From the NCBI GenBank assembly GCA_964549075.1, contig CAZJUB010000006.1:1-64000 (forward strand): DNA of 64,000 bases, given 5' to 3'. Source of the stretch: an uncultured archaeon. Lineage in GTDB: Archaea; Asgardarchaeota; Heimdallarchaeia; Heimdallarchaeales; Heimdallarchaeaceae. The number at the start of each line of letters is the position of its first letter. The stretch's first letter is position 1. Positions 7,190-45,012 of the stretch are shown here, piece by piece. The notes under the pieces are model-generated. The model was given only the letters and a program-made list of their open reading frames with translations, had not been told where the DNA came from and searched no databases. The translations under genes and the position numbers were made by a program.

Positions 7190-8674
7190 ATGAAAAAACA
7201 ATCTATCATAACTTTGATACTACTTACACTTCTATGTAGTGTGAGTTTCATCTCAACTAGTATGAGTAAAGATATAGAAAACCAAACTTACCAGCCAATA
7301 TTAAATGCAACTTACAGACCTATTTTTGCTGGAACAGATGGAAATGCTACAGTAATTTATGACAGGACTCCAACTAATACAAGAGGAGCATTATATCAAG
7401 CAAACATCTATGCTAATGTGACTATTTGGTATAAATATCTAAATGGAGATAATGAATCATCACCTATCTTGTTTATAGATGATGGACTTGGAACCTTCAA
7501 TCCAACTGGGGAACTCATGCATTTTGATGAAGCTAAGACAGTATTAGCACCTGATCCAGGTTATGGTTATTATAACTTCACATTTACAATGAACACAAAT
7601 TTCGTTGTATTTAGAGCAAGATATGGTTTATATGAAGATGATTTTGGATTATATAATATAATTACTGCTGATGGAACAAGAGTTAGATCCTTCTTCTGGG
7701 AACCTTATTATACTCAGCTAGAAGAAATTAGTATGAACTTAACTTACTATAATTATAATATTATCGGGTATGGTTTCAAATATAGAGATGTCACAGAAAA
7801 TTATAATGGTGCGTTTGAAAATGTTACTTTTGCATTAGTCACTAATGGTGATGAAGGAACACTAAATGCTTCATTTTCTCACACATTTGAAAAAGGTACT
7901 GTTGTACAAGTTCAAGCTTTTATTATCCAATATGATAATATGACTGGAACCGGTAGAGTATTTGCAGAAAATTACATTAACACTTTTACAGTAGCTGATG
8001 CAACTCCGGTGATAGAATTATCTGTTCCTAGATACACAAATAAACTTAATGTGAGTTTACTCTGGAGTGCAACTGTATTGAATGGTAATATCACAGCTTT
8101 TGAAATCAATTGGGGAGATTTATCTGGAATACAGATTGTTAATATATCTGTCCATCGATATTATCACGTATATGCAAGTGTTGGTGAATATACAATAAAT
8201 GCTACTGCATATGCAGATTTCTTAGTATCTAACCTCACAGTTAAAGTGCTTATCGAACAGATTAAACCTCTTGGAAGTGTAAAGATAGTCTTACCTAATG
8301 GTACGACAATAATACCTAATCCTCCAAATATTCCAGAAATAGTTGTTGAAGAAAAGCAATTAGATTTCATTTTAAATGCAAACGATACTGGAGGTAGTGG
8401 TATAGAAATGATTATTCTCTCTACAGATGAAGGGAATTCGATAGAAATTTCAGAAAACGGGCAAGTTACAATGAATTTTCTTGAATATGGAATTAGAGAT
8501 ATTACAATCACTGTGATTGATCGTGCAGGAAATGAAATTAGTGAATCATTTTATATCAATCTTGTTATGAAAGAATTACCAGGTGATATTCCTGTGCCAT
8601 TTCCATTCGGAATAACAACTATCCTAGGTTTGTTTTCAGTAGCATTTTTACTTTACCTTAGAAAGAAGAAATAA
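7190..8674 (+). CDS. Secreted, C-terminally anchored surface glycoprotein with PKD/Ig-like domains
   Basis: N-terminal signal peptide, about 17 N-x-S/T sequons, PKD-like INWGD...HVY...GEYTI, Ig-like DRAGN, C-terminal PFPF + TM + RKKK. Confidence 0.78.
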   Translation: MKKQSIITLILLTLLCSVSFISTSMSKDIENQTYQPILNATYRPIFAGTDGNATVIYDRTPTNTRGALYQANIYANVTIWYKYLNGDNESSPILFIDDGLGTFNPTGELMHFDEAKTVLAPDPGYGYYNFTFTMNTNFVVFRARYGLYEDDFGLYNIITADGTRVRSFFWEPYYTQLEEISMNLTYYNYNIIGYGFKYRDVTENYNGAFENVTFALVTNGDEGTLNASFSHTFEKGTVVQVQAFIIQYDNMTGTGRVFAENYINTFTVADATPVIELSVPRYTNKLNVSLLWSATVLNGNITAFEINWGDLSGIQIVNISVHRYYHVYASVGEYTINATAYADFLVSNLTVKVLIEQIKPLGSVKIVLPNGTTIIPNPPNIPEIVVEEKQLDFILNANDTGGSGIEMIILSTDEGNSIEISENGQVTMNFLEYGIRDITITVIDRAGNEISESFYINLVMKELPGDIPVPFPFGITTILGLFSVAFLLYLRKKK

Positions 8675-9174: not shown

Positions 9175-10062
9175 TTAGGTTGTATGTGACCATATCTCAA
9201 GAATTCTAAAGATTAAACCTACTCCAAAGTTGAGTGCAGTTTTGTTAGTTCTTTCATAACTAATCTCCACAAAATCAACATAATGAGATTTAGGAAGAAG
9301 GATGTTAAGAATATCAACTATTATGCTAGGAGTCAAACCAAAAGGTTCCATGGTCGCTACTGTAGGTACAAATGCTTGATCAATAGCATCAGCATCTATA
9401 CTTAAATAAATTATCTTAAATTTCGAAACAAATTCTTTAATTTTTTCTAAACTTTTATTTTGGTTTGTTAGAATATCTTGTGTAGCAATATAATTAGTTG
9501 TCTTGTTTTTCTTGATTTTTTGATATTCACTAGATGTTATCGTGTATGCATGCCCTCCAATGAACAACAGTTGTTCCTTCTTCAATCCAAGTTTTGCTAT
9601 CAAATTTGTAAAAACTGTACCATGAGATTGAAAGATACCTTGTGGATATTCATCAGCAAGATCTGCGTGAGCATCAATCCATACTAGAGCAACTTCTTTT
9701 CCCCATGGTGCATTAATCAAAGTATCATATGTGATACTATGGTCTCCTCCCAAAACAAGAAGTTTAGAGTTTGTTTTTTTAGCTTTCTCCCAAATTTGAA
9801 TAATTTCTTTTCTTTGTTTTATGGGATTAAAATTTCCAAAATCATAATAATTTGCTTTCTGTTCGGTTATATTGAAATCAGATGAAATGCCACTAAATTC
9901 AATAGATTGTTTCCTGAGTGCATCAGGAGCTTTTCTAGAACCTCTTTTTGTAGCTTTAACTCTCTCAAATGGGATACCTAATAAAAAAACAGATTCTTTA
10001 TCATCTATACTTGCAATATCTTCAACAGTAAAGAAGCCTAGGAAAGTTCTTTTCATGGTCAA
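9175..10062 (-). CDS. Arginase/agmatinase family ureohydrolase
   Basis: G.PF, GSRKAP, GGDHS, DAHAD, SHGT and SIDADAID metal motifs. Confidence 0.88.
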   Translation of the reverse strand: MTMKRTFLGFFTVEDIASIDDKESVFLLGIPFERVKATKRGSRKAPDALRKQSIEFSGISSDFNITEQKANYYDFGNFNPIKQRKEIIQIWEKAKKTNSKLLVLGGDHSITYDTLINAPWGKEVALVWIDAHADLADEYPQGIFQSHGTVFTNLIAKLGLKKEQLLFIGGHAYTITSSEYQKIKKNKTTNYIATQDILTNQNKSLEKIKEFVSKFKIIYLSIDADAIDQAFVPTVATMEPFGLTPSIIVDILNILLPKSHYVDFVEISYERTNKTALNFGVGLIFRILEIWSHTT

Positions 10063-10099: not shown

Positions 10100-12613
10100 T
10101 TATTGTTCTTTAAGATAATAATCTGGAGAAGTCACATATCTCCTATCATCATCAGTTTCTCCAACTTCAATATCAGTATAGATATCTTCCATTATCTCCT
10201 CATTGCTTATGTCAGCTAAAATCTTCCTTTTATCCACAGAGATGATTCTACTCAATTCTATAGTTTTAGGATTGAATCTTCCTATAGTTTTATTCATCTC
10301 TTCTATGTTGTTGATTTTACCAATTAAATTCATGAAAGTCATAACAATATCTGGCCTTAAAGCAACTTGTGGAGCGATACTTAGTAATTTCCCTATTGAA
10401 ATTGCTAGATTATCAATGAAATTTTGATCATTTTCAAATAATGATGCTGGTCGGTCGTTAATGAAAGAAGCTATTAGTAATAAATCTATAGAAGTCCATA
10501 AATAAAGCATTGGTCTTTCTTTAAGCTGTAGATTATAAACCACACCAATTTCAGTACCTTTAACATTTTCAACTACTTTTCCTTCTAAATCAAAGATCTC
10601 ATTTAATTCAAAAGATGTTCCACCAAAACTGACTTGAATTGAGTTACCAACAAGCTTTACATTTCCTAGAGAATAAAGAATGAACTTGGAGTTTTCCACA
10701 TTATCGGGAAGTATTCCAGTATGTTTTTCTATTAAAATACGTTTTAGCATTTCAATATCCTGAATTTCCTCTTCACTTCGATTATATTCTTCTGATAATT
10801 CCTTAATGATTTTATCCCTCTTCTCAATTGGAGTAAGTATTGATCTAAACAAATGACCTGTTTCTTCATCTTGATGCAAAATGTCATAGATTTGTTTGTA
10901 TAGATTTAACGCAATTTGACTTTTTTCTACAACAAGGAAATAACCTTTCATTGGATGGTAAATAATAGAATGTGCCTTTCCTAACTTTTGATTGAAAATA
11001 TTTCGTACATTAATTTCCTCTTCCTCTGCTATTCTAGAACTGATTAAATTGCTTTCAGTTGGATTAAAGAAAGGGAGTAATTCTCCATTTTTGATTATTT
11101 TTTGACTGTCTACTTTTATCTCTCGTGCTGTTTTTTCAATATAAGTATTGGGAACAAACAGATAATTTTCAGTTTGAGTGATAACATCTTTCAATTCTTG
11201 ATTCAATGGCGATTCTATTCTTCTACAATATTCAATAGCAGCCTCAGGAACTATATAAGTAAAGGACATCTGAGGAATCGTTTTAGGTAGTTCATTCAGT
11301 AAAAACTCCTTCTTTTCTAATTCTGATTCAAGTTCTGCTTCTTTACCAGCTGGTGAAATAATATGATCAAATATACGTCTTATCATAGAAAGTGATATCT
11401 CTCTTTGCTGTTTTATGATAATTCCTGATTCATCATTGAATTGACCAGGTCCTACCACAAATCCTACTAAATCACTTTGTTCATCTACTACTGGTTTACC
11501 AGAATAACGCCAGAGAGCTCTTAACTCGGATAATAATTGATAATCAATATCTCTACTGGATGCACTGGTTGCAATAGATAATCTCTGTTTCAGCTGTTGA
11601 GAACTAATAACCTCACTATACTTTTGAATTCTGGTTTCAATGTTTAAAGTTAAATCCTTGAAATATGGTGTTGTTATCTCTTGAAACTTTAAGTGCTCAC
11701 CATAAATTTGATCCATTGCATCAAGATCTTTTGAATAATCATTTATATCATCGTCAAGAAGTTCTTCATAAATTTCTAATTGTCTTATTCTTCTATTAAT
11801 GTCGTCTTCTTGTGCGTCTGAGAGTCTTTCGTGATAGTTTTCTTTAAAAATTCTGAATTTTTCTCTTTCTTGTTGTATAATCACTTTCCATTTGAGAGTA
11901 TCTTGAGCAGCTTTTTTTAGAATAGGGCGGTGTCTAATGACTCTTTCATTTATGTCATAGATGATTCCCTTTAGCTCTTTTTTATCAGTAACCATTCTCC
12001 TCAGTCTATTGATGTTTTCACTAAGTTCATTATTGAAAAGTAGGAAATTATTGTGAGTGTTTTTGTATAAATGTTCTCGGTTGACAGAAAAAAGTAATTC
12101 TGATAACTTATAGAAGTGTTGAAATACTTTGTGTTGTTTTGCTTCAACTTCATTTTTCCTCTTCATATACTCTTGATCATCAATTTTGTTAATTACATAA
12201 TCTTGCTCTAGTTCCATTTCTTCTTCAAAAGTCCTTGTAGCAGCTTTGATAGCCATATACATAACATATCGTATTTTTAATTCTTCTATCTCAACAGGAG
12301 GAATTTCGTCTAATTCTATTTCGGGGAATTTAACGTCTAGTTTGATTTCTTCTGGTTTTGTTCTAACAATTTCTCCTCTTTCAATTTCCTGAATATCTGT
12401 TTCTGCTTCCGGTAAAATCTGTTGAGTATCCTCGATAGTAACTTCTTCTTGCGAAACTAGACCTGAAGGTAATCCAGATAGAATCTCTTTATATTTATTT
12501 TTAAGAGTTTGATAGGTTCTTCTATCTATAGAACCTCTAATATATCGTAAATCAAGATCCCTGATAAACCTAAGAATCCTTCTTTTCTTTAGAGTAATAT
12601 CATCGTCAGACAT
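10100..12613 (-). CDS. Large coiled-coil protein with CdvA-like helical motifs and three split PRC-barrel-like repeats
   Basis: N-terminal L..Y..G.I....Y motifs (aa ~20-41 and ~135-156). Three repeats begin YSGKPVVDEQSDLVGFV, INVRNIFNQKLGKA and LEGKVVENVKGTEIGVV. Confidence 0.6.
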   Translation of the reverse strand: MSDDDITLKKRRILRFIRDLDLRYIRGSIDRRTYQTLKNKYKEILSGLPSGLVSQEEVTIEDTQQILPEAETDIQEIERGEIVRTKPEEIKLDVKFPEIELDEIPPVEIEELKIRYVMYMAIKAATRTFEEEMELEQDYVINKIDDQEYMKRKNEVEAKQHKVFQHFYKLSELLFSVNREHLYKNTHNNFLLFNNELSENINRLRRMVTDKKELKGIIYDINERVIRHRPILKKAAQDTLKWKVIIQQEREKFRIFKENYHERLSDAQEDDINRRIRQLEIYEELLDDDINDYSKDLDAMDQIYGEHLKFQEITTPYFKDLTLNIETRIQKYSEVISSQQLKQRLSIATSASSRDIDYQLLSELRALWRYSGKPVVDEQSDLVGFVVGPGQFNDESGIIIKQQREISLSMIRRIFDHIISPAGKEAELESELEKKEFLLNELPKTIPQMSFTYIVPEAAIEYCRRIESPLNQELKDVITQTENYLFVPNTYIEKTAREIKVDSQKIIKNGELLPFFNPTESNLISSRIAEEEEINVRNIFNQKLGKAHSIIYHPMKGYFLVVEKSQIALNLYKQIYDILHQDEETGHLFRSILTPIEKRDKIIKELSEEYNRSEEEIQDIEMLKRILIEKHTGILPDNVENSKFILYSLGNVKLVGNSIQVSFGGTSFELNEIFDLEGKVVENVKGTEIGVVYNLQLKERPMLYLWTSIDLLLIASFINDRPASLFENDQNFIDNLAISIGKLLSIAPQVALRPDIVMTFMNLIGKINNIEEMNKTIGRFNPKTIELSRIISVDKRKILADISNEEIMEDIYTDIEVGETDDDRRYVTSPDYYLKEQ

Positions 12614-12698
12614 TATTAAAGTAAAATATACGTTTCATATTCAAATATGTTACTAAAATATCAATCTATAATTTCTTGGTAAAAAGCGATACCCATAA

Positions 12699-12714
12699 GA
12701 AAAAATATATATTT
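12699..12714 (+). promoter_or_regulatory. BRE-TATA promoter upstream of profilin
   Basis: gaaaaaaTATATATT; GGTGA RBS at 12741-12745 before ATG 12752. Confidence 0.5.
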
Positions 12715-12751
12715 AATGTGTTACAAGAAAAAATAGTAACGGTGATTATTA

Positions 12752-13111
12752 ATGAGTTTTCAAGATGAGGTACAAGTGCTCGCTAATGAAGGTACAGTTG
12801 GTGTTGTTTGGCTTTTAGGTGACGATTTGAAATGTTATTATCAATATGGTGACTGGGCTGTTGATCCCACTATCCCATTTAATGCGTGGAAGAATCAAAC
12901 TCCTTCGGTAGATTTTGGTGGTGGATTGAAGTTTACTGTAATCGCGATGACACCTGAGAGATTGATTTCTAGTAATCTTGGAGGTCAAGGACACCTCATA
13001 GTAGCTCGTTGTCCAAAATGGGCAGGTTGTGTAATAACCTGGTCTCCTTCAAATGTTCAAAAAGATTATGCGTATGCATGTGCAGCAAAACTAGCAGCTA
13101 GAGTAGGCTAA
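12752..13111 (+). CDS. Asgard profilin (actin-monomer-binding protein)
   Basis: 119 aa. YQ...W.VD, PSV..GG.KF.VI...PERLI..N.GGQGHLI match the pattern I recall for Odin/Loki-type profilins. Confidence 0.85.
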   Translation: MSFQDEVQVLANEGTVGVVWLLGDDLKCYYQYGDWAVDPTIPFNAWKNQTPSVDFGGGLKFTVIAMTPERLISSNLGGQGHLIVARCPKWAGCVITWSPSNVQKDYAYACAAKLAARVG

Positions 13112-13418: not shown

Positions 13419-13985
13419 TCAGAGTTTCATTTTTTCAAAAGCTCTGATCAATTCATTTCTTTCTGTGAATTTTTGGTGTAAACTCGCACTTAGATTCATA
13501 AGGTGTGCAATACTTGTTTCAACCGTATCGAGCATCATTTCTTCTAAATTAACTTTTATTTCTGTTATTTTGTCTTTGAATTCTTCTGAATTATCCAATA
13601 TATCGATTTCTAATAGATACAAAATAGAAAGATCTATACCATGTTCTCCTTCAACATCGTCTACGTCGAAAAAAGTACTGTATTTGTAGTCAGTATTTTT
13701 AGCTTCTTTTCTCAGATCACTAATTGTTTTCGAAACAATCCCAGCTGGTCCCCAACTAGTCAGGAGTTGTGAATGTATTAGTAATTCCTGAACTTGACTC
13801 ATCATGTCACTTGTTTCTCTTAGAATATTAACTAACTTGGTTCTAAAGGCTTTATCTGTGTTCTTTCTATATTCTAGAGCTTTATAGCCTAAGTATCCTT
13901 CAATATTTGCTCTGAGAATTTTCAAAGCCTCACTTGGAGCTTCCGATAAAGCTGCATTTGATACATCTTTCTTTTTACCAAACAT
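13419..13985 (-). CDS. Conserved hypothetical alpha-helical protein
   Basis: I.GY.GY...E.R...DK..R motif and helical amphipathic pattern; GGTGA RBS upstream. Confidence 0.6.
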   Translation of the reverse strand: MFGKKKDVSNAALSEAPSEALKILRANIEGYLGYKALEYRKNTDKAFRTKLVNILRETSDMMSQVQELLIHSQLLTSWGPAGIVSKTISDLRKEAKNTDYKYSTFFDVDDVEGEHGIDLSILYLLEIDILDNSEEFKDKITEIKVNLEEMMLDTVETSIAHLMNLSASLHQKFTERNELIRAFEKMKL

Positions 13986-30830: not shown

Positions 30831-31624
30831 TTTATGTTTTGTTTAATACAATCAGTTCCTATTACTTTATCTGTTGTTCGAAAACCCATTTTTTTATATA
30901 TTTTTACTGCTGGAATATTAGATTCTTCTACCCACAATGATATTGTTTCTATACCTTTAGAAAATAATATTTCACACATTTTTGCACTAATATCGAAACC
31001 AAATCCTCTGTTTCTGTATTCTTGAGAAACCCAAACTCCTCTGATAATAGCAAAGGAAAAATTCTCATTTACTATAATGTGAGGTGCAAAGGCAACGCCT
31101 ATGATTTTATCATCTTTAATAATTCCAACCCCACCACCTTCCGAATTTGAAAAAAGAAGTCTCTGTTTGAAACTTAATTCTTTTATTACCGTTTCATCCA
31201 GATTCTGTGCTTCATAAGTGTCTTTTGTTATGAAATTTTCCTGATTTAATTCCATACTCAAAAAAGTATTCATTTCTTTGCCTTTTGCAGATTTATCCAT
31301 TACTTCAAAGCTAGTAAAATTATCCATGACAACTTCCATCCATTCAGGATCAAATGACAAACTTATCTTTCCTACTGGTTCATACATATCCAGAAGTTCT
31401 CTATTTGATGGTCCAAAAAGAGTAGTGTGCAAATCATATGAAAATCTAAAAGAGGAATCCTTTCTTTGAAAGTGACAACTCTCTGGAAATGTGAGAATGT
31501 CCCAAACAGTGTAAGCAAGCCTCGATATTCTATTTTTTCCAACCTCTAGAATAGAATCAAATTGAAGTGGCATTGATATAAAAGTAAAAAACTTCCTTAT
31601 ATCTTCTTCTCTTTTTAAAATCAC
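30827..31624 (-). CDS. GNAT family N-acetyltransferase (C-terminal FR47/RimI-like domain)
   Basis: V.V.QEYRNRGFG acetyl-CoA motif; N.PA..IY.KMGF. Confidence 0.88.
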   Translation of the reverse strand: MILKREEDIRKFFTFISMPLQFDSILEVGKNRISRLAYTVWDILTFPESCHFQRKDSSFRFSYDLHTTLFGPSNRELLDMYEPVGKISLSFDPEWMEVVMDNFTSFEVMDKSAKGKEMNTFLSMELNQENFITKDTYEAQNLDETVIKELSFKQRLLFSNSEGGGVGIIKDDKIIGVAFAPHIIVNENFSFAIIRGVWVSQEYRNRGFGFDISAKMCEILFSKGIETISLWVEESNIPAVKIYKKMGFRTTDKVIGTDCIKQNIK

Positions 31625-32583
31625 ATGTATTTCTGACCATAAAGCTCATTATCAAGCTTGTTAAGGTACTCGCTATATTCACTTTTATTGGATATTTCAA
31701 AAGCTTTCTTAATTCTCTGCGTTCCTTCATATCTTTGTCCCATTCTAATAAGAGCTTGTCCAGACAGAAAAAGTGCTTCATCATCATCTTTGATAAGTGT
31801 CAGTAGTTCGTTGCATAAATTAAATGTCTTTTGTATGTCCCCCTCTGCAAGATAAAGTCTTGCTAATTTATTATATATGCTTCGGTTATCTTTTCTTGTT
31901 CTTTCTTCTACTTGAAGAGCTTGTAGATATTTCTCTTTTGCGATATCTAGATGCCCCATAAAATCATAGAGATCTCCTAATTCTTCATATAATTCTTGGT
32001 TTACTGGATCAATTTCAATAGCAGAATTATATGCATCAATTGCTGATAGGAAATTCTCCATCTCTTTATAACTCTGAGCTAACAATCGCCAAACCTCTAT
32101 GTCCTCTCTATTAATTCTTAGATAGGTTTCAAAACTTAATACTGCTACTTGGTATTCTCCTCTTTGTAAAGCTAGTTTACCTCGTCCTAACCAAGATTGT
32201 ATCGCTCTGGGATTGAGAGAAGTTGCTTTAAAATAGTAATTTTCTGATACGTCTGGTTGATTCCAGATTCTATAAATCTCACCTAAAAGTTCATATGATT
32301 CCCAATGATCAGTATCTTCTGCTATAACTGAGGTTAATGCTTCAACAGCATCTTTAAAGTGCCCCTGTAGATAAAGCACTTTACCTTTTTTAAACAATAA
32401 AGATTTATCGTGGTATTTTTCTGTCATTCTGTCAAGAAATGAAAGAGCTTCATCAAACAAACTATTTTCAATTAGACTATCTATTAATTCTATCTCAAAA
32501 GGCTTCATATCTTGATTAGAATCCAAATTCATGAACCCACCAATATTACTTGTTTCTTCTGTCATTAAAAACTTTTCAGTCAA
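31621..32583 (-). CDS. Tetratricopeptide repeat protein
   Basis: About 7 TPR units (e.g. W..LA..Y......AI.AY..AIEIDP). Start may be ATG 32565. Confidence 0.9.
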   Translation of the reverse strand: MTEKFLMTEETSNIGGFMNLDSNQDMKPFEIELIDSLIENSLFDEALSFLDRMTEKYHDKSLLFKKGKVLYLQGHFKDAVEALTSVIAEDTDHWESYELLGEIYRIWNQPDVSENYYFKATSLNPRAIQSWLGRGKLALQRGEYQVAVLSFETYLRINREDIEVWRLLAQSYKEMENFLSAIDAYNSAIEIDPVNQELYEELGDLYDFMGHLDIAKEKYLQALQVEERTRKDNRSIYNKLARLYLAEGDIQKTFNLCNELLTLIKDDDEALFLSGQALIRMGQRYEGTQRIKKAFEISNKSEYSEYLNKLDNELYGQKYM

Positions 32584-43713: not shown

Positions 43714-45012
43714 CTATTTCTCAAATGAAAGAGATTGAACTGTAGTGTTTTTTAAAAATTCAAATAATATTACTGCGAATGCATAAGCTAAATTGTTTGG
43801 AGTGTACCTATCTCCTTTTGTTAGTCTTCTAATTCTAAAAAGCAATTGTTCGATTATGGTCTGTTTATTTTCTTCTATAAATTCGTGAGGTTCAGATACG
43901 AATTTAGCATATAATCTAATGTCAATTAGTGGTAGTGCCATCTGAGGATATTCTTCAAAAATACTAAACCAAGTTTCAAGTAAATATTGTAAATATTTCT
44001 CCTGGTCTGCTATATCCTGAATTCCAAATTCATCAACTGCCATTCGTCTAAGAACTCTCTCAATATTTCTCTCCAGATTTGTTCTTTTAGTTTCTGTTAT
44101 CTCTTTTCTAAGTTTTAAAGTTTCAAATAACGTTTGTTCAATTGCTGATAAAAGTTGTTCAATTCTTCCATGATCCTTCTTATGTTGATCTAATGCTTGG
44201 AATTCTTTACGCATATCTGCAGTTTCTTCCTCAAATTCTTGATGACGTTTTTCTATGGTTTTATTGAAAGCTTCTTGTAAAATATCATAATATCGGGCTA
44301 TTATGCTATTATTAATTAAATCATATAGAACTATTTCATCATCTCCAAGAGGATAAGAATTAATAAAATCTGAATATAGTTGACCTGTTGATTTGACTGA
44401 ATCTAGTAATTGTTCTTCGAACATAATTTTCTCTAGAGTATAAGCGAATATCGCAGCAATAAATCTTAAATCAACAGTGAACTCACCTACTTCAAAGAAT
44501 AGAAAAGATTCTGTTAAGGCTGGCGTGAAATTTCTCAAATTGAGTATTGTTTTTACAATATCTTCATCAATTTCTAAACTACTAAGTTCTATAAAATGGT
44601 ATACGATATAGTTAATTGAGCTTGTAACTGTTTTCAAACTATTGATAAAAGAAGATAACAATCCTACAAATTCGTCATCAGTACATATCTGTTTCTTATC
44701 TGTTGCTTCTAAAAGAGCAGATATATCTTCTGCATAGAATGGGGCATCATATTTTTTCAAAATATCTTCTGTGACTATAATACCGTAGATAGCAAGTGCC
44801 ATATCCTTTTTCTGTGAAGATAAGAATCCAATATCACTTTTCAATTCCCTTCGTAGTTCACTTAAGAATGTTGGTTGTGTTTGTATAAAATGCTTAATCT
44901 TCGACTCTAAGGTCGAGTATATCTTTCTAAATTCATTTACAATTTCAACAACATCTTTTGGCTCATATTGCAATTCCTCAGTATTAACAATCTCTCTAAA
45001 CATCCTTAACAT
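43714..45012 (-). CDS. Hypothetical alpha-helical/coiled-coil protein
   Basis: Long ORF overlapping the upstream gene by 17 nt; no motif recognised. Confidence 0.6.
   Translation of the reverse strand: MLRMFREIVNTEELQYEPKDVVEIVNEFRKIYSTLESKIKHFIQTQPTFLSELRRELKSDIGFLSSQKKDMALAIYGIIVTEDILKKYDAPFYAEDISALLEATDKKQICTDDEFVGLLSSFINSLKTVTSSINYIVYHFIELSSLEIDEDIVKTILNLRNFTPALTESFLFFEVGEFTVDLRFIAAIFAYTLEKIMFEEQLLDSVKSTGQLYSDFINSYPLGDDEIVLYDLINNSIIARYYDILQEAFNKTIEKRHQEFEEETADMRKEFQALDQHKKDHGRIEQLLSAIEQTLFETLKLRKEITETKRTNLERNIERVLRRMAVDEFGIQDIADQEKYLQYLLETWFSIFEEYPQMALPLIDIRLYAKFVSEPHEFIEENKQTIIEQLLFRIRRLTKGDRYTPNNLAYAFAVILFEFLKNTTVQSLSFEK

Follow-up and report, generated by a model that had tools for sequence, protein, structure and literature searches.

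A PRC-type scaffold protein with three insert-bearing barrels encoded next to profilin in Heimdallarchaeaceae

The P0001 locus and the architecture of its product

The stretch of DNA analyzed herein (the window) comprises positions 1 to 64,000 of the forward strand of contig CAZJUB010000006.1, 64,000 nucleotides in length, from the assembly GCA_964549075.1 of an uncultured archaeon of the Heimdallarchaeaceae (Asgardarchaeota), and its minus strand carries an open reading frame (ORF, 10100-12613) of 837 amino acids (aa) plus stop codon whose product, designated P0001, is an Asgard-specific multidomain scaffold protein. The ORF is real and conserved, as a large protein collection contained 41 full-length or partial homologues with 40-97% identity, the named ones being nearly all labelled Heimdallarchaeota or Heimdallarchaeaceae and one being labelled Thorarchaeota, and HMMER, run exhaustively against 1.84 billion cluster representatives, gave 11 matches in total. 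No Pfam or NCBIfam model matched P0001 even at an expectation value (E) of 1 or below. Across a divergent intergenic gap of 138 bp (12614-12751, assigned to no strand) lies, on the plus strand, a conserved neighbour of 119 aa (12752-13111), which was identified as profilin from its matches to solved profilin-type chains, namely 5zza_P (E 3.2e-11), 7pbh_A (labelled Profilin, E 2.8e-5), and 6yrr_A (Profilin, E 0.017); those of the matched entries that are titled 'Uncharacterized protein' are presumably Asgard profilins.

The C-terminal half of P0001 is composed of three PRC-type barrels. All structural statements made here derive from predicted models; the AlphaFold2 model of P0001, built on a 26-sequence alignment, had a predicted local distance difference test score (pLDDT) of 78.2 and a predicted template modelling score of 0.61, with the blocks over aa 361-800 mostly at 85-94, and module 2 modelled alone reached a pLDDT of 85.4. 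The three modules share a common topology, in which three strands are followed by a helical insert of 72-81 aa after the third strand and then by three short strands. Module 1 (aa 358-505; 11099-11542, minus strand) has its strands at aa 374-402 (E374-376/E382-392/E395-402) and 484-501 (E484-488/E492-494/E499-501), separated by the insert at aa 403-483 (11165-11407, minus) with helices spanning 408-478. Module 2 (aa 518-669; 10607-11062, minus) is arranged likewise, with strands at aa 535-563 (E535-537/E543-553/E557-563) and 644-661 (E644-648/E652-655/E658-661) around the insert at aa 564-643 (10685-10924, minus; helices 569-641), as is module 3 (aa 670-803; 10205-10606, minus), with strands at aa 680-710 (E680-682/E688-697/E701-706) and 783-800 (E783-786/E790-793/E797-800) around the insert at aa 711-782 (10268-10483, minus; helices 711-779). 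A preliminary description of this DNA, made from the sequence, had proposed three split PRC-type barrels at aa 368-502, 533-662, and 675-801; the predicted topology bore this out, the boundaries agreed with those of the modules, and the three peptides which had been read as terminal strands turned out to be the last three strands of each module.

In structure comparison, the greater part of each small six-stranded barrel could be superposed on PRC barrels of known structure, and the solved barrels aligned across each module once the insert was skipped. The top rows of the Foldseek searches with both the full-length and the module 2 model were PRC proteins, although no row reached E ≤ 0.001 with either of them, and the barrels matched the CdpB-type entries 8onw and 8qzo from Archaeoglobus fulgidus. 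The helical insert gave no confident fold match. At the sequence level, the resemblance was faint. None of the 26 family members reached the gathering score of the PRC-barrel model PF05239 (21.2 bits), which gave sub-threshold matches in four of the 26 (best 16.5 bits, E 0.0089), three of which could be located, each where module 2 or module 3 begins; a class-specific PRC profile built from 20 domains did not detect the P0001 gene at E ≤ 0.01. When the modules were compared by hhalign with 24 or 20 canonical Heimdall-class PRC domains, the barrel start was placed in register with weak E values of 0.023 for module 1, 0.094 and 0.13 for module 2, and 0.028 for module 3. A phmmer match of aa 580-646 to the RalGDS Ras-association domain (E 0.003) disappeared when the family profile was used and was rejected as a chance hit.

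The repeats are invisible to BLAST, with a best pairwise E of 0.024 in a tiny search space and no self-match when the full protein was compared with itself. Profile comparison, on the other hand, aligned modules 1 and 2 in register over 48 columns (E 2.3e-4), the start of the insert with its first helices included, and also aligned modules 1 and 3 (E 0.073) and modules 2 and 3 (E 0.13) in register. The three modules may have arisen by triplication of a barrel that already carried its insert.

The N-terminal half is predicted to be helical. It opens with a helix-turn-helix motif at aa 8-47 (12473-12592, minus; model helices H3-25 and H31-47), which is the most conserved stretch of P0001, with invariant residues from I13 through Y41 in the alignments. 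An acidic, poorly conserved linker (aa 48-105; 12299-12472, minus) follows, which is largely of low confidence apart from one short helix, the pLDDT falling under 50 for aa 51-58 and 82-92 and the alignment columns being variable. Long antiparallel, coiled-coil-like helical hairpins then occupy aa 106-342 (11588-12298, minus; H106-140, H146-180, H182-205, H211-263, H266-309, and H323-342 in the model), and this region gave structure matches of a generic helical kind only. At the other end of the protein, the peptide YVTSPDYYL (aa 826-834; 10112-10138, minus) stands after an acidic low-confidence tail, with pLDDT below 50 over aa 810-837; V827, P830, and L834 are invariant and S829, D831, and Y832 nearly so, which marks it as a candidate short linear motif for partner binding.

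The preliminary description had regarded the N-terminal half as CdvA-like on account of two L...Y....I....Y motifs. Both are indeed present, at L20-Y24-I29-Y34 within the conserved helix-turn-helix motif and at L135-Y139-I144-Y149 around the turn at aa 141-145; their tyrosines are invariant or nearly so, and in the model both sit at helix-turn-helix junctions. It was that description which ascribed such a motif to CdvA. The similarity to CdvA itself, on which the proposal was meant to stand or fall, was not borne out, as PF18822 matched none of the 26 members at E ≤ 1, the family profiles matched no CdvA chain at E ≤ 10 in a search of PDB sequences, and a six-frame search of the own genome with PF18822 at E ≤ 10 gave two weak matches, neither of them in the P0001 gene. 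P0001 is most probably not a CdvA homologue. The better of the two genomic matches, at sub-threshold E 0.017 over model positions 1-106, lies in a 279-aa reading frame at locus L026 (G000:C12:44334-44651, plus strand), which also shows a weak SHOCT match at 44550-44591 and may encode a steadiness-box-type, ESCRT-I-like protein.

Other searches were equally unrevealing. An ESM Atlas search with aa 1-345 gave no usable match, and a profile search of PDB sequences found nothing relevant (the myosin-VIIa single alpha-helix at E 0.12 and one plant protein at E 0.018). Three candidate identities were discarded: SHOCT, considered for the N-terminal motif, as PF09851 had no match in the P0001 gene at E ≤ 10; GvpG, with weak matches only (E 0.0098 at locus L065 and E 0.44 in one member); and DUF2589, whose weak matches within the coiled-coil region of seven of the 26 members all lay below the cut-off and were treated as noise. 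A motif like that at the N-terminus was also found at the C-termini of unrelated small proteins of another family-level taxon (f17), where two adjacent minus-strand genes at locus L100 encode a protein of 264 aa with N-terminal membrane segments (1090-1884) and one of 97 aa (1891-2184), both with an L..L...G.D..tY..Lr.KY motif at or near the C-terminus. Judged from these occurrences, this short stretch of helices behaves like a portable element.

Distribution and gene neighbourhood of the family

The distribution of the family was surveyed in 301 genomes of the phylum, in which family-level taxa are denoted f1, f2, and so on, f1 being that of the window's own genome; related genomes are not independent observations. 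The close family was found as a single copy in 27 of 28 f1 genomes plus the own genome, the sole miss being a 1.2-Mb genome of 76% completeness, and no genome of the three sister families within the order yielded it (0/11, 0/1, and 0/3). More distant homologues were also recognized. P0049, which belongs to the f6-type family, shares 22% identity with P0001 over the three modules and led to a sister family, and a search with P0051 detected homologues in all 11 f6 genomes, with reading frames of 1011-1073 aa, in 2/2 f9 (E about 1e-33), 1/1 f22 (E 9e-27), and 1/1 f15 genomes (E 1e-10), as well as weak matches in 10 of 21 f5 genomes; the two largest families gave none (0/76 and 0/68). The f9 and f22 homologues are 23-26% identical to P0001. 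In 13 distant proteins, no Pfam model scored over its cut-off and PF05239 gave no match at E ≤ 0.05. The module-wise hidden Markov models made from the f1 alignment hit the f6, f9, and f22 proteins in the order N-terminal region, module 1, module 2, module 3. The same domain order in such remote, low-identity homologues indicates that the architecture is old within Asgard archaea, highly diverged, and patchily distributed; at least four Asgard families beyond f1 have very divergent homologues.

The preliminary description had also pointed to the divergent arrangement with profilin, and this link was confirmed and could be extended well beyond the window. In f1, profilin lies divergently upstream of the P0001-type gene in 19 of 25 close loci, 18 of them within about 145-390 bp and one (L015) at about 1.76 kb; two further close loci (L014 and L016) were too short to be judged. 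The surrounding block, consisting of DNA ligase, a 188-aa ORF, DUF167, profilin, the P0001 gene, an arginase-family gene, RidA, and a 494-aa ORF, is colinear in f1, even with the members of about 45% identity in complete Heimdallarchaeum genomes. As such colinearity alone would be ordinary synteny, eight distant loci were examined. Profilin was adjacent in all six clear ones: in four of four f6 loci it is immediately adjacent and convergent at a distance of about 50-75 bp, in the f22 locus (1/1) it is adjacent and convergent, with the arginase-family gene, DUF167, and ligase nearby, and in the f9 locus (1/1) the two adjacent genes stand in tandem with 138 bp between them. In the four f6 loci, none of the other genes in the first 40 kb of the window has a counterpart next to the homologue, and the sole other gene shared there is a homologue of the 320-aa ORF at 31624-32583, which lies about 7 kb away in three of the four. 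The pair was thus retained through changes of orientation and, in f6, even as every other adjacent neighbour was lost.

Within the gap between the P0001 and profilin genes, alignment of the window with 10 related loci revealed two AT-rich blocks, at about 12636-12664 on the P0001 side and about 12691-12719 on the profilin side, which are separately conserved and each lie about 30-45 nt upstream of one start codon. They may represent two independent promoters with TATA/BRE-like elements rather than one shared element. On the opposite side, 37 bp downstream of the P0001 gene and on the same strand, an arginase/agmatinase-family gene (9175-10062, minus; PF00491, E 8.2e-46) is kept in 22 of 25 close loci and is possibly co-transcribed with the P0001 gene. 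The 188-aa ORF between the DUF167 and DNA ligase genes (13419-13985, minus) has no family match; its position is conserved in f1, and homologues occur in the f9 and f5 loci (E 1e-10 to 1e-21). The 494-aa ORF at the edge of the f1 syntenic block (7190-8674, plus) has a signal-like segment at the N-terminus of its product, a hydrophobic anchor at the C-terminus, and a large number of N-x-S/T sites, and probably encodes a surface glycoprotein.

Possible roles of the P0001 family

Among the roles considered, that of an oligomeric adaptor coupled to profilin and actin appeared the most likely, and we put it forward tentatively, with somewhat less than even confidence. According to this proposal, the helical region would let P0001 oligomerise or give it an elongated shape, and the barrels and their inserts would offer protein-binding or polymerising surfaces in the manner of the PRC barrels of CdpB1/B2 and CdvA. 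The peptide conserved at aa 826-834, behind the acidic tail, would serve as a docking motif, and the protein would act with the profilin of the adjacent gene in regulating the Asgard actin cytoskeleton.

Besides the persistent adjacency, this proposal draws on poly-proline tracts. Runs of 4-8 prolines occur in the disordered linker before module 1 in five of eight f6 homologues; the homologue at locus L074 has six such tracts, most of them preceded by leucine (LPPPPPP-like), and P0051 has a run of six. Among the 109 ORFs of the eight distant loci, runs of four or more prolines were found in two only, both of which encode P0001 homologues. These f6 homologues probably recruit profilin directly via the FH1-like tracts in their linker. 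The proteins of f9, f22, and f15 have no run of three or more prolines. According to PMC8410842, the profilins of Heimdall LC3 and Thor bind a VASP poly-proline peptide with a KD of about 0.2-3.3 mM, earlier work cited in it found no such binding by the profilins of Loki, Odin, and Heimdall LC2, and native partners were only suggested, through a listing of proline motifs in Asgard proteins.

Several observations weigh against a coupling to profilin. The eight f1 proteins analyzed, P0001 included, lack any run of three or more prolines, so that any contact of P0001 with profilin or actin would need another surface, and three of the eight f6 homologues lack runs of four or more. The published affinities of profilin for poly-proline are weak (0.3-3.3 mM). 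The gene context has exceptions: one f1 sub-clade has lost the adjacency, profilin being absent at two close loci (L018 and L019), where 6 kb of unrelated membrane and surface genes lie upstream, and not found in the 710-795 bp of available upstream DNA at two others (L010 and L024), and in the two f5 loci a weakly similar ORF of 653-666 aa adjoins DUF167 without profilin. Moreover, the wider block of DNA ligase, 188-aa ORF, DUF167, and arginase-family gene is also kept in f1, f9, and f22, so that an inherited gene order may account for some of the adjacency.

The main rival explanation places P0001 in the divisome, which we consider unlikely but a genuine contender. P0001 would then be the PRC component of the FtsZ/SepF machinery, with its three barrels and coiled coil replacing stand-alone CdpB-type proteins and the heteropolymerisation of CdpB1/B2. 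One preprint reports that in Haloferax CdpB1 binds SepF and CdpB1/B2 polymerise, and that PRC proteins co-distribute with FtsZ and SepF; direct SepF binding, polymerisation, and a mid-cell location are the defining properties of CdpB-type division proteins given there (bioRxiv 10.1101/2023.03.28.534543). Canonical PRC (PF05239) was detected in none of 30 f1 genomes, nor in the own genome, and was present in f2 (11/12), f3 (1/1), f4 (2/3), f5 (5/22), f6 (12/12), and f7 (2/2); the class-specific profile likewise gave one marginal match (E 0.0049) in the 30 f1 genomes against 11 of 12 in f2, with E down to 3e-28. SepF was found in 28 of the 30 f1 genomes, and the own genome has one FtsZ/tubulin-family gene. 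A lineage with SepF but without detectable canonical PRC, taken together with the CdpB1-SepF binding in Haloferax, means that P0001 could be its PRC-type divisome component, and the structural match of the barrels to the A. fulgidus CdpB-type entries is in line with this.

The distribution in other families, however, argues against so simple an exchange. In f6, P0001 homologues (11/11) coexist with canonical PRC and SepF (12/12 each), and P0001 is hence not simply a replacement; the complementarity comes from one lineage, effectively a single evolutionary event. SepF occurs in 240 of the 301 Asgard genomes, most of them without the P0001 family, and its co-occurrence accordingly says little, nor does a division gene adjoin the P0001-type gene in any examined locus. 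A predicted complex of the C-terminal half of P0001 (482 aa) with a SepF of the same genome (117 aa) gave scores of 0.00 and 0.00, which speak neither for nor against binding.

Some further observations concern the division genes themselves. SepF was not found in the own genome, an 89.7% complete assembly, though it occurs in all 24 genomes of the same genus, and is probably missing through an assembly gap. In one same-genus genome, a canonical-type SepF (L042, G298:C339:2825-3040; 53.7 bits, 113 aa, with a typical N-terminal amphipathic start) stands in place of the divergent SepF of 117-122 aa that is usual in the family; it could be contamination, or the usual SepF could be missing from this 78%-complete assembly. 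The sister family f2 is the reverse of f1, with PRC in 11/12 and SepF in 0/12 genomes, and f5 mostly has neither (PRC 5/22, SepF 1/22 and weak). The canonical Heimdall-class PRC proteins (loci L080-L099 and L031-L036) are mostly about 200-240 aa in length with two PRC domains, and have a 'GGS-x-EE...G...D-x-D-P' segment after the third strand, at about the position of the large insert of P0001.

It is likewise unlikely, in our estimation, that P0001 is a structural scaffold whose partners have to do with neither profilin, division, nor RNA, the adjacency to profilin reflecting the slow decay of an ancestral gene order. The block of ligase, 188-aa ORF, DUF167, profilin, P0001 gene, and arginase-family gene is partly colinear in f1, f9, and f22, as would be expected of such decay, and the orientation relative to profilin varies among divergent, convergent, and tandem, so that co-transcription is not conserved. 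Yet only profilin remains adjacent in the four of four f6 loci, and the poly-proline tracts of five of eight f6 homologues contrast with their absence from every other ORF of the same loci.

A bolder form of the profilin-adaptor proposal, which is speculative and which we regard as rather improbable, would make the family an Asgard-specific factor for actin assembly or anchoring that predates and parallels the eukaryotic formins and Ena/VASP proteins. A coiled-coil oligomer would present profilin-actin to a three-barrel C-terminal module that binds actin filaments, membrane, or the division ring, and recruitment would proceed via FH1-like tracts in some lineages and via another surface in that of the window. 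If true, a native poly-proline partner would for the first time have been put forward for an Asgard profilin, and scaffolds of the division type built on PRC barrels would be connected directly with the actin cytoskeleton.

An RNA- or ribosome-associated function, in which the barrels would play the part that they have in RimM and further PRC proteins involved in RNA metabolism, with profilin as a neighbour by historical accident, seems very unlikely. Archaeal PRC genes often lie near translation or RNA-processing genes, as stated in a second preprint (bioRxiv 10.1101/2023.03.28.534520), but no gene of either kind is adjacent in any examined locus, the N-terminal domain of RimM is absent from P0001, fold similarity alone does not indicate function, and in f6 the adjacency to profilin persists though all other neighbours have changed. 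Finally, the reading of the preliminary description as a permuted CdvA-type ESCRT adaptor, with a helical region homologous to the CdvA coiled coil that templates ESCRT-III assembly and a C-terminal peptide acting like the CdvA E3B, is scarcely tenable in view of the failed PF18822 and CdvA-chain searches described above and of a domain order and number unlike those of CdvA.

Whatever its role, P0001 shows a known fold in an architecture, a family, and a context that are new. Recent work has revealed PRC barrels as core elements of both archaeal division systems, as CdpB with FtsZ/SepF and as CdvA with ESCRT-III, and Asgard profilin and actin are central to ideas on the origin of the eukaryotic cytoskeleton. 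This unannotated family, which has no Pfam or NCBIfam model, displays a new PRC-barrel design, in which a long helical region precedes three tandem barrels that each carry a helical subdomain. No other PRC-type protein was detected in this lineage, which has SepF and FtsZ, and the family keeps its place beside profilin in deeply separated Asgard lineages, some homologues bearing formin-like proline tracts. It offers a concrete native candidate partner for Asgard profilin, for which the published study used a VASP peptide (PMC8410842). Among the titles and abstracts listed by full-text literature searches, none described a triple insert-bearing PRC protein, or one encoded beside profilin, from Asgard archaea. 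According to bioRxiv 10.1101/2023.03.28.534520, duplications and fusions of PRC domains are common and widely spread, and the supplementary tables of that preprint might list the P0001 family.

Comparison with known systems

The C-terminal PRC-barrel of RimM (2f1l, 3h9n, 3a1p, 2dyi, and 7cq1) shares only 16-21% identity with P0001 over the aligned residues, and P0001 differs from RimM in lacking its N-terminal domain and a ribosomal gene context and in having its barrels interrupted by inserts. CdvA of Sulfolobales (9s9g and 9s9i) consists, as given in PMC12818579, of an N-terminal PRC domain, a three-helix coiled coil, and a C-terminal E3B peptide. In P0001 this order is reversed, with the helices first, and three insert-bearing barrels stand against the single one of CdvA; the similarity of the helices appears generic (rank 34) and comes without PF18822 signal, and the gene lacks a Cdv operon context.

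With formins (FH1) and Ena/VASP proteins, the f6 homologues have in common a disordered linker with LPPPPPP-type tracts, flanked by an oligomerising helical region on one side and by a folded module at the C-terminus on the other; in f6 the gene also adjoins profilin. In contrast to those proteins, the family has no FH2, EVH1, or EVH2 domain, and P0001 has no proline tract; the comparison is thus one of layout by analogy and not of homology.

A parallel in the barrels themselves is provided by CdpB1/CdpB2 (A. fulgidus 8qzo and 8onw). CdpB-type proteins are small, with one or two PF05239 domains, whereas P0001 is 837 aa long, does not reach the PF05239 cut-off, and has extra domains, carrying three barrels on one chain, a helical subdomain of 72-81 aa in each, and a large N-terminal helical region. 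The two are nevertheless alike in that several barrels act together, and the 'GGS-x-EE' segment after strand 3 of canonical Heimdall-class PRC domains probably corresponds in position to the insert of P0001.

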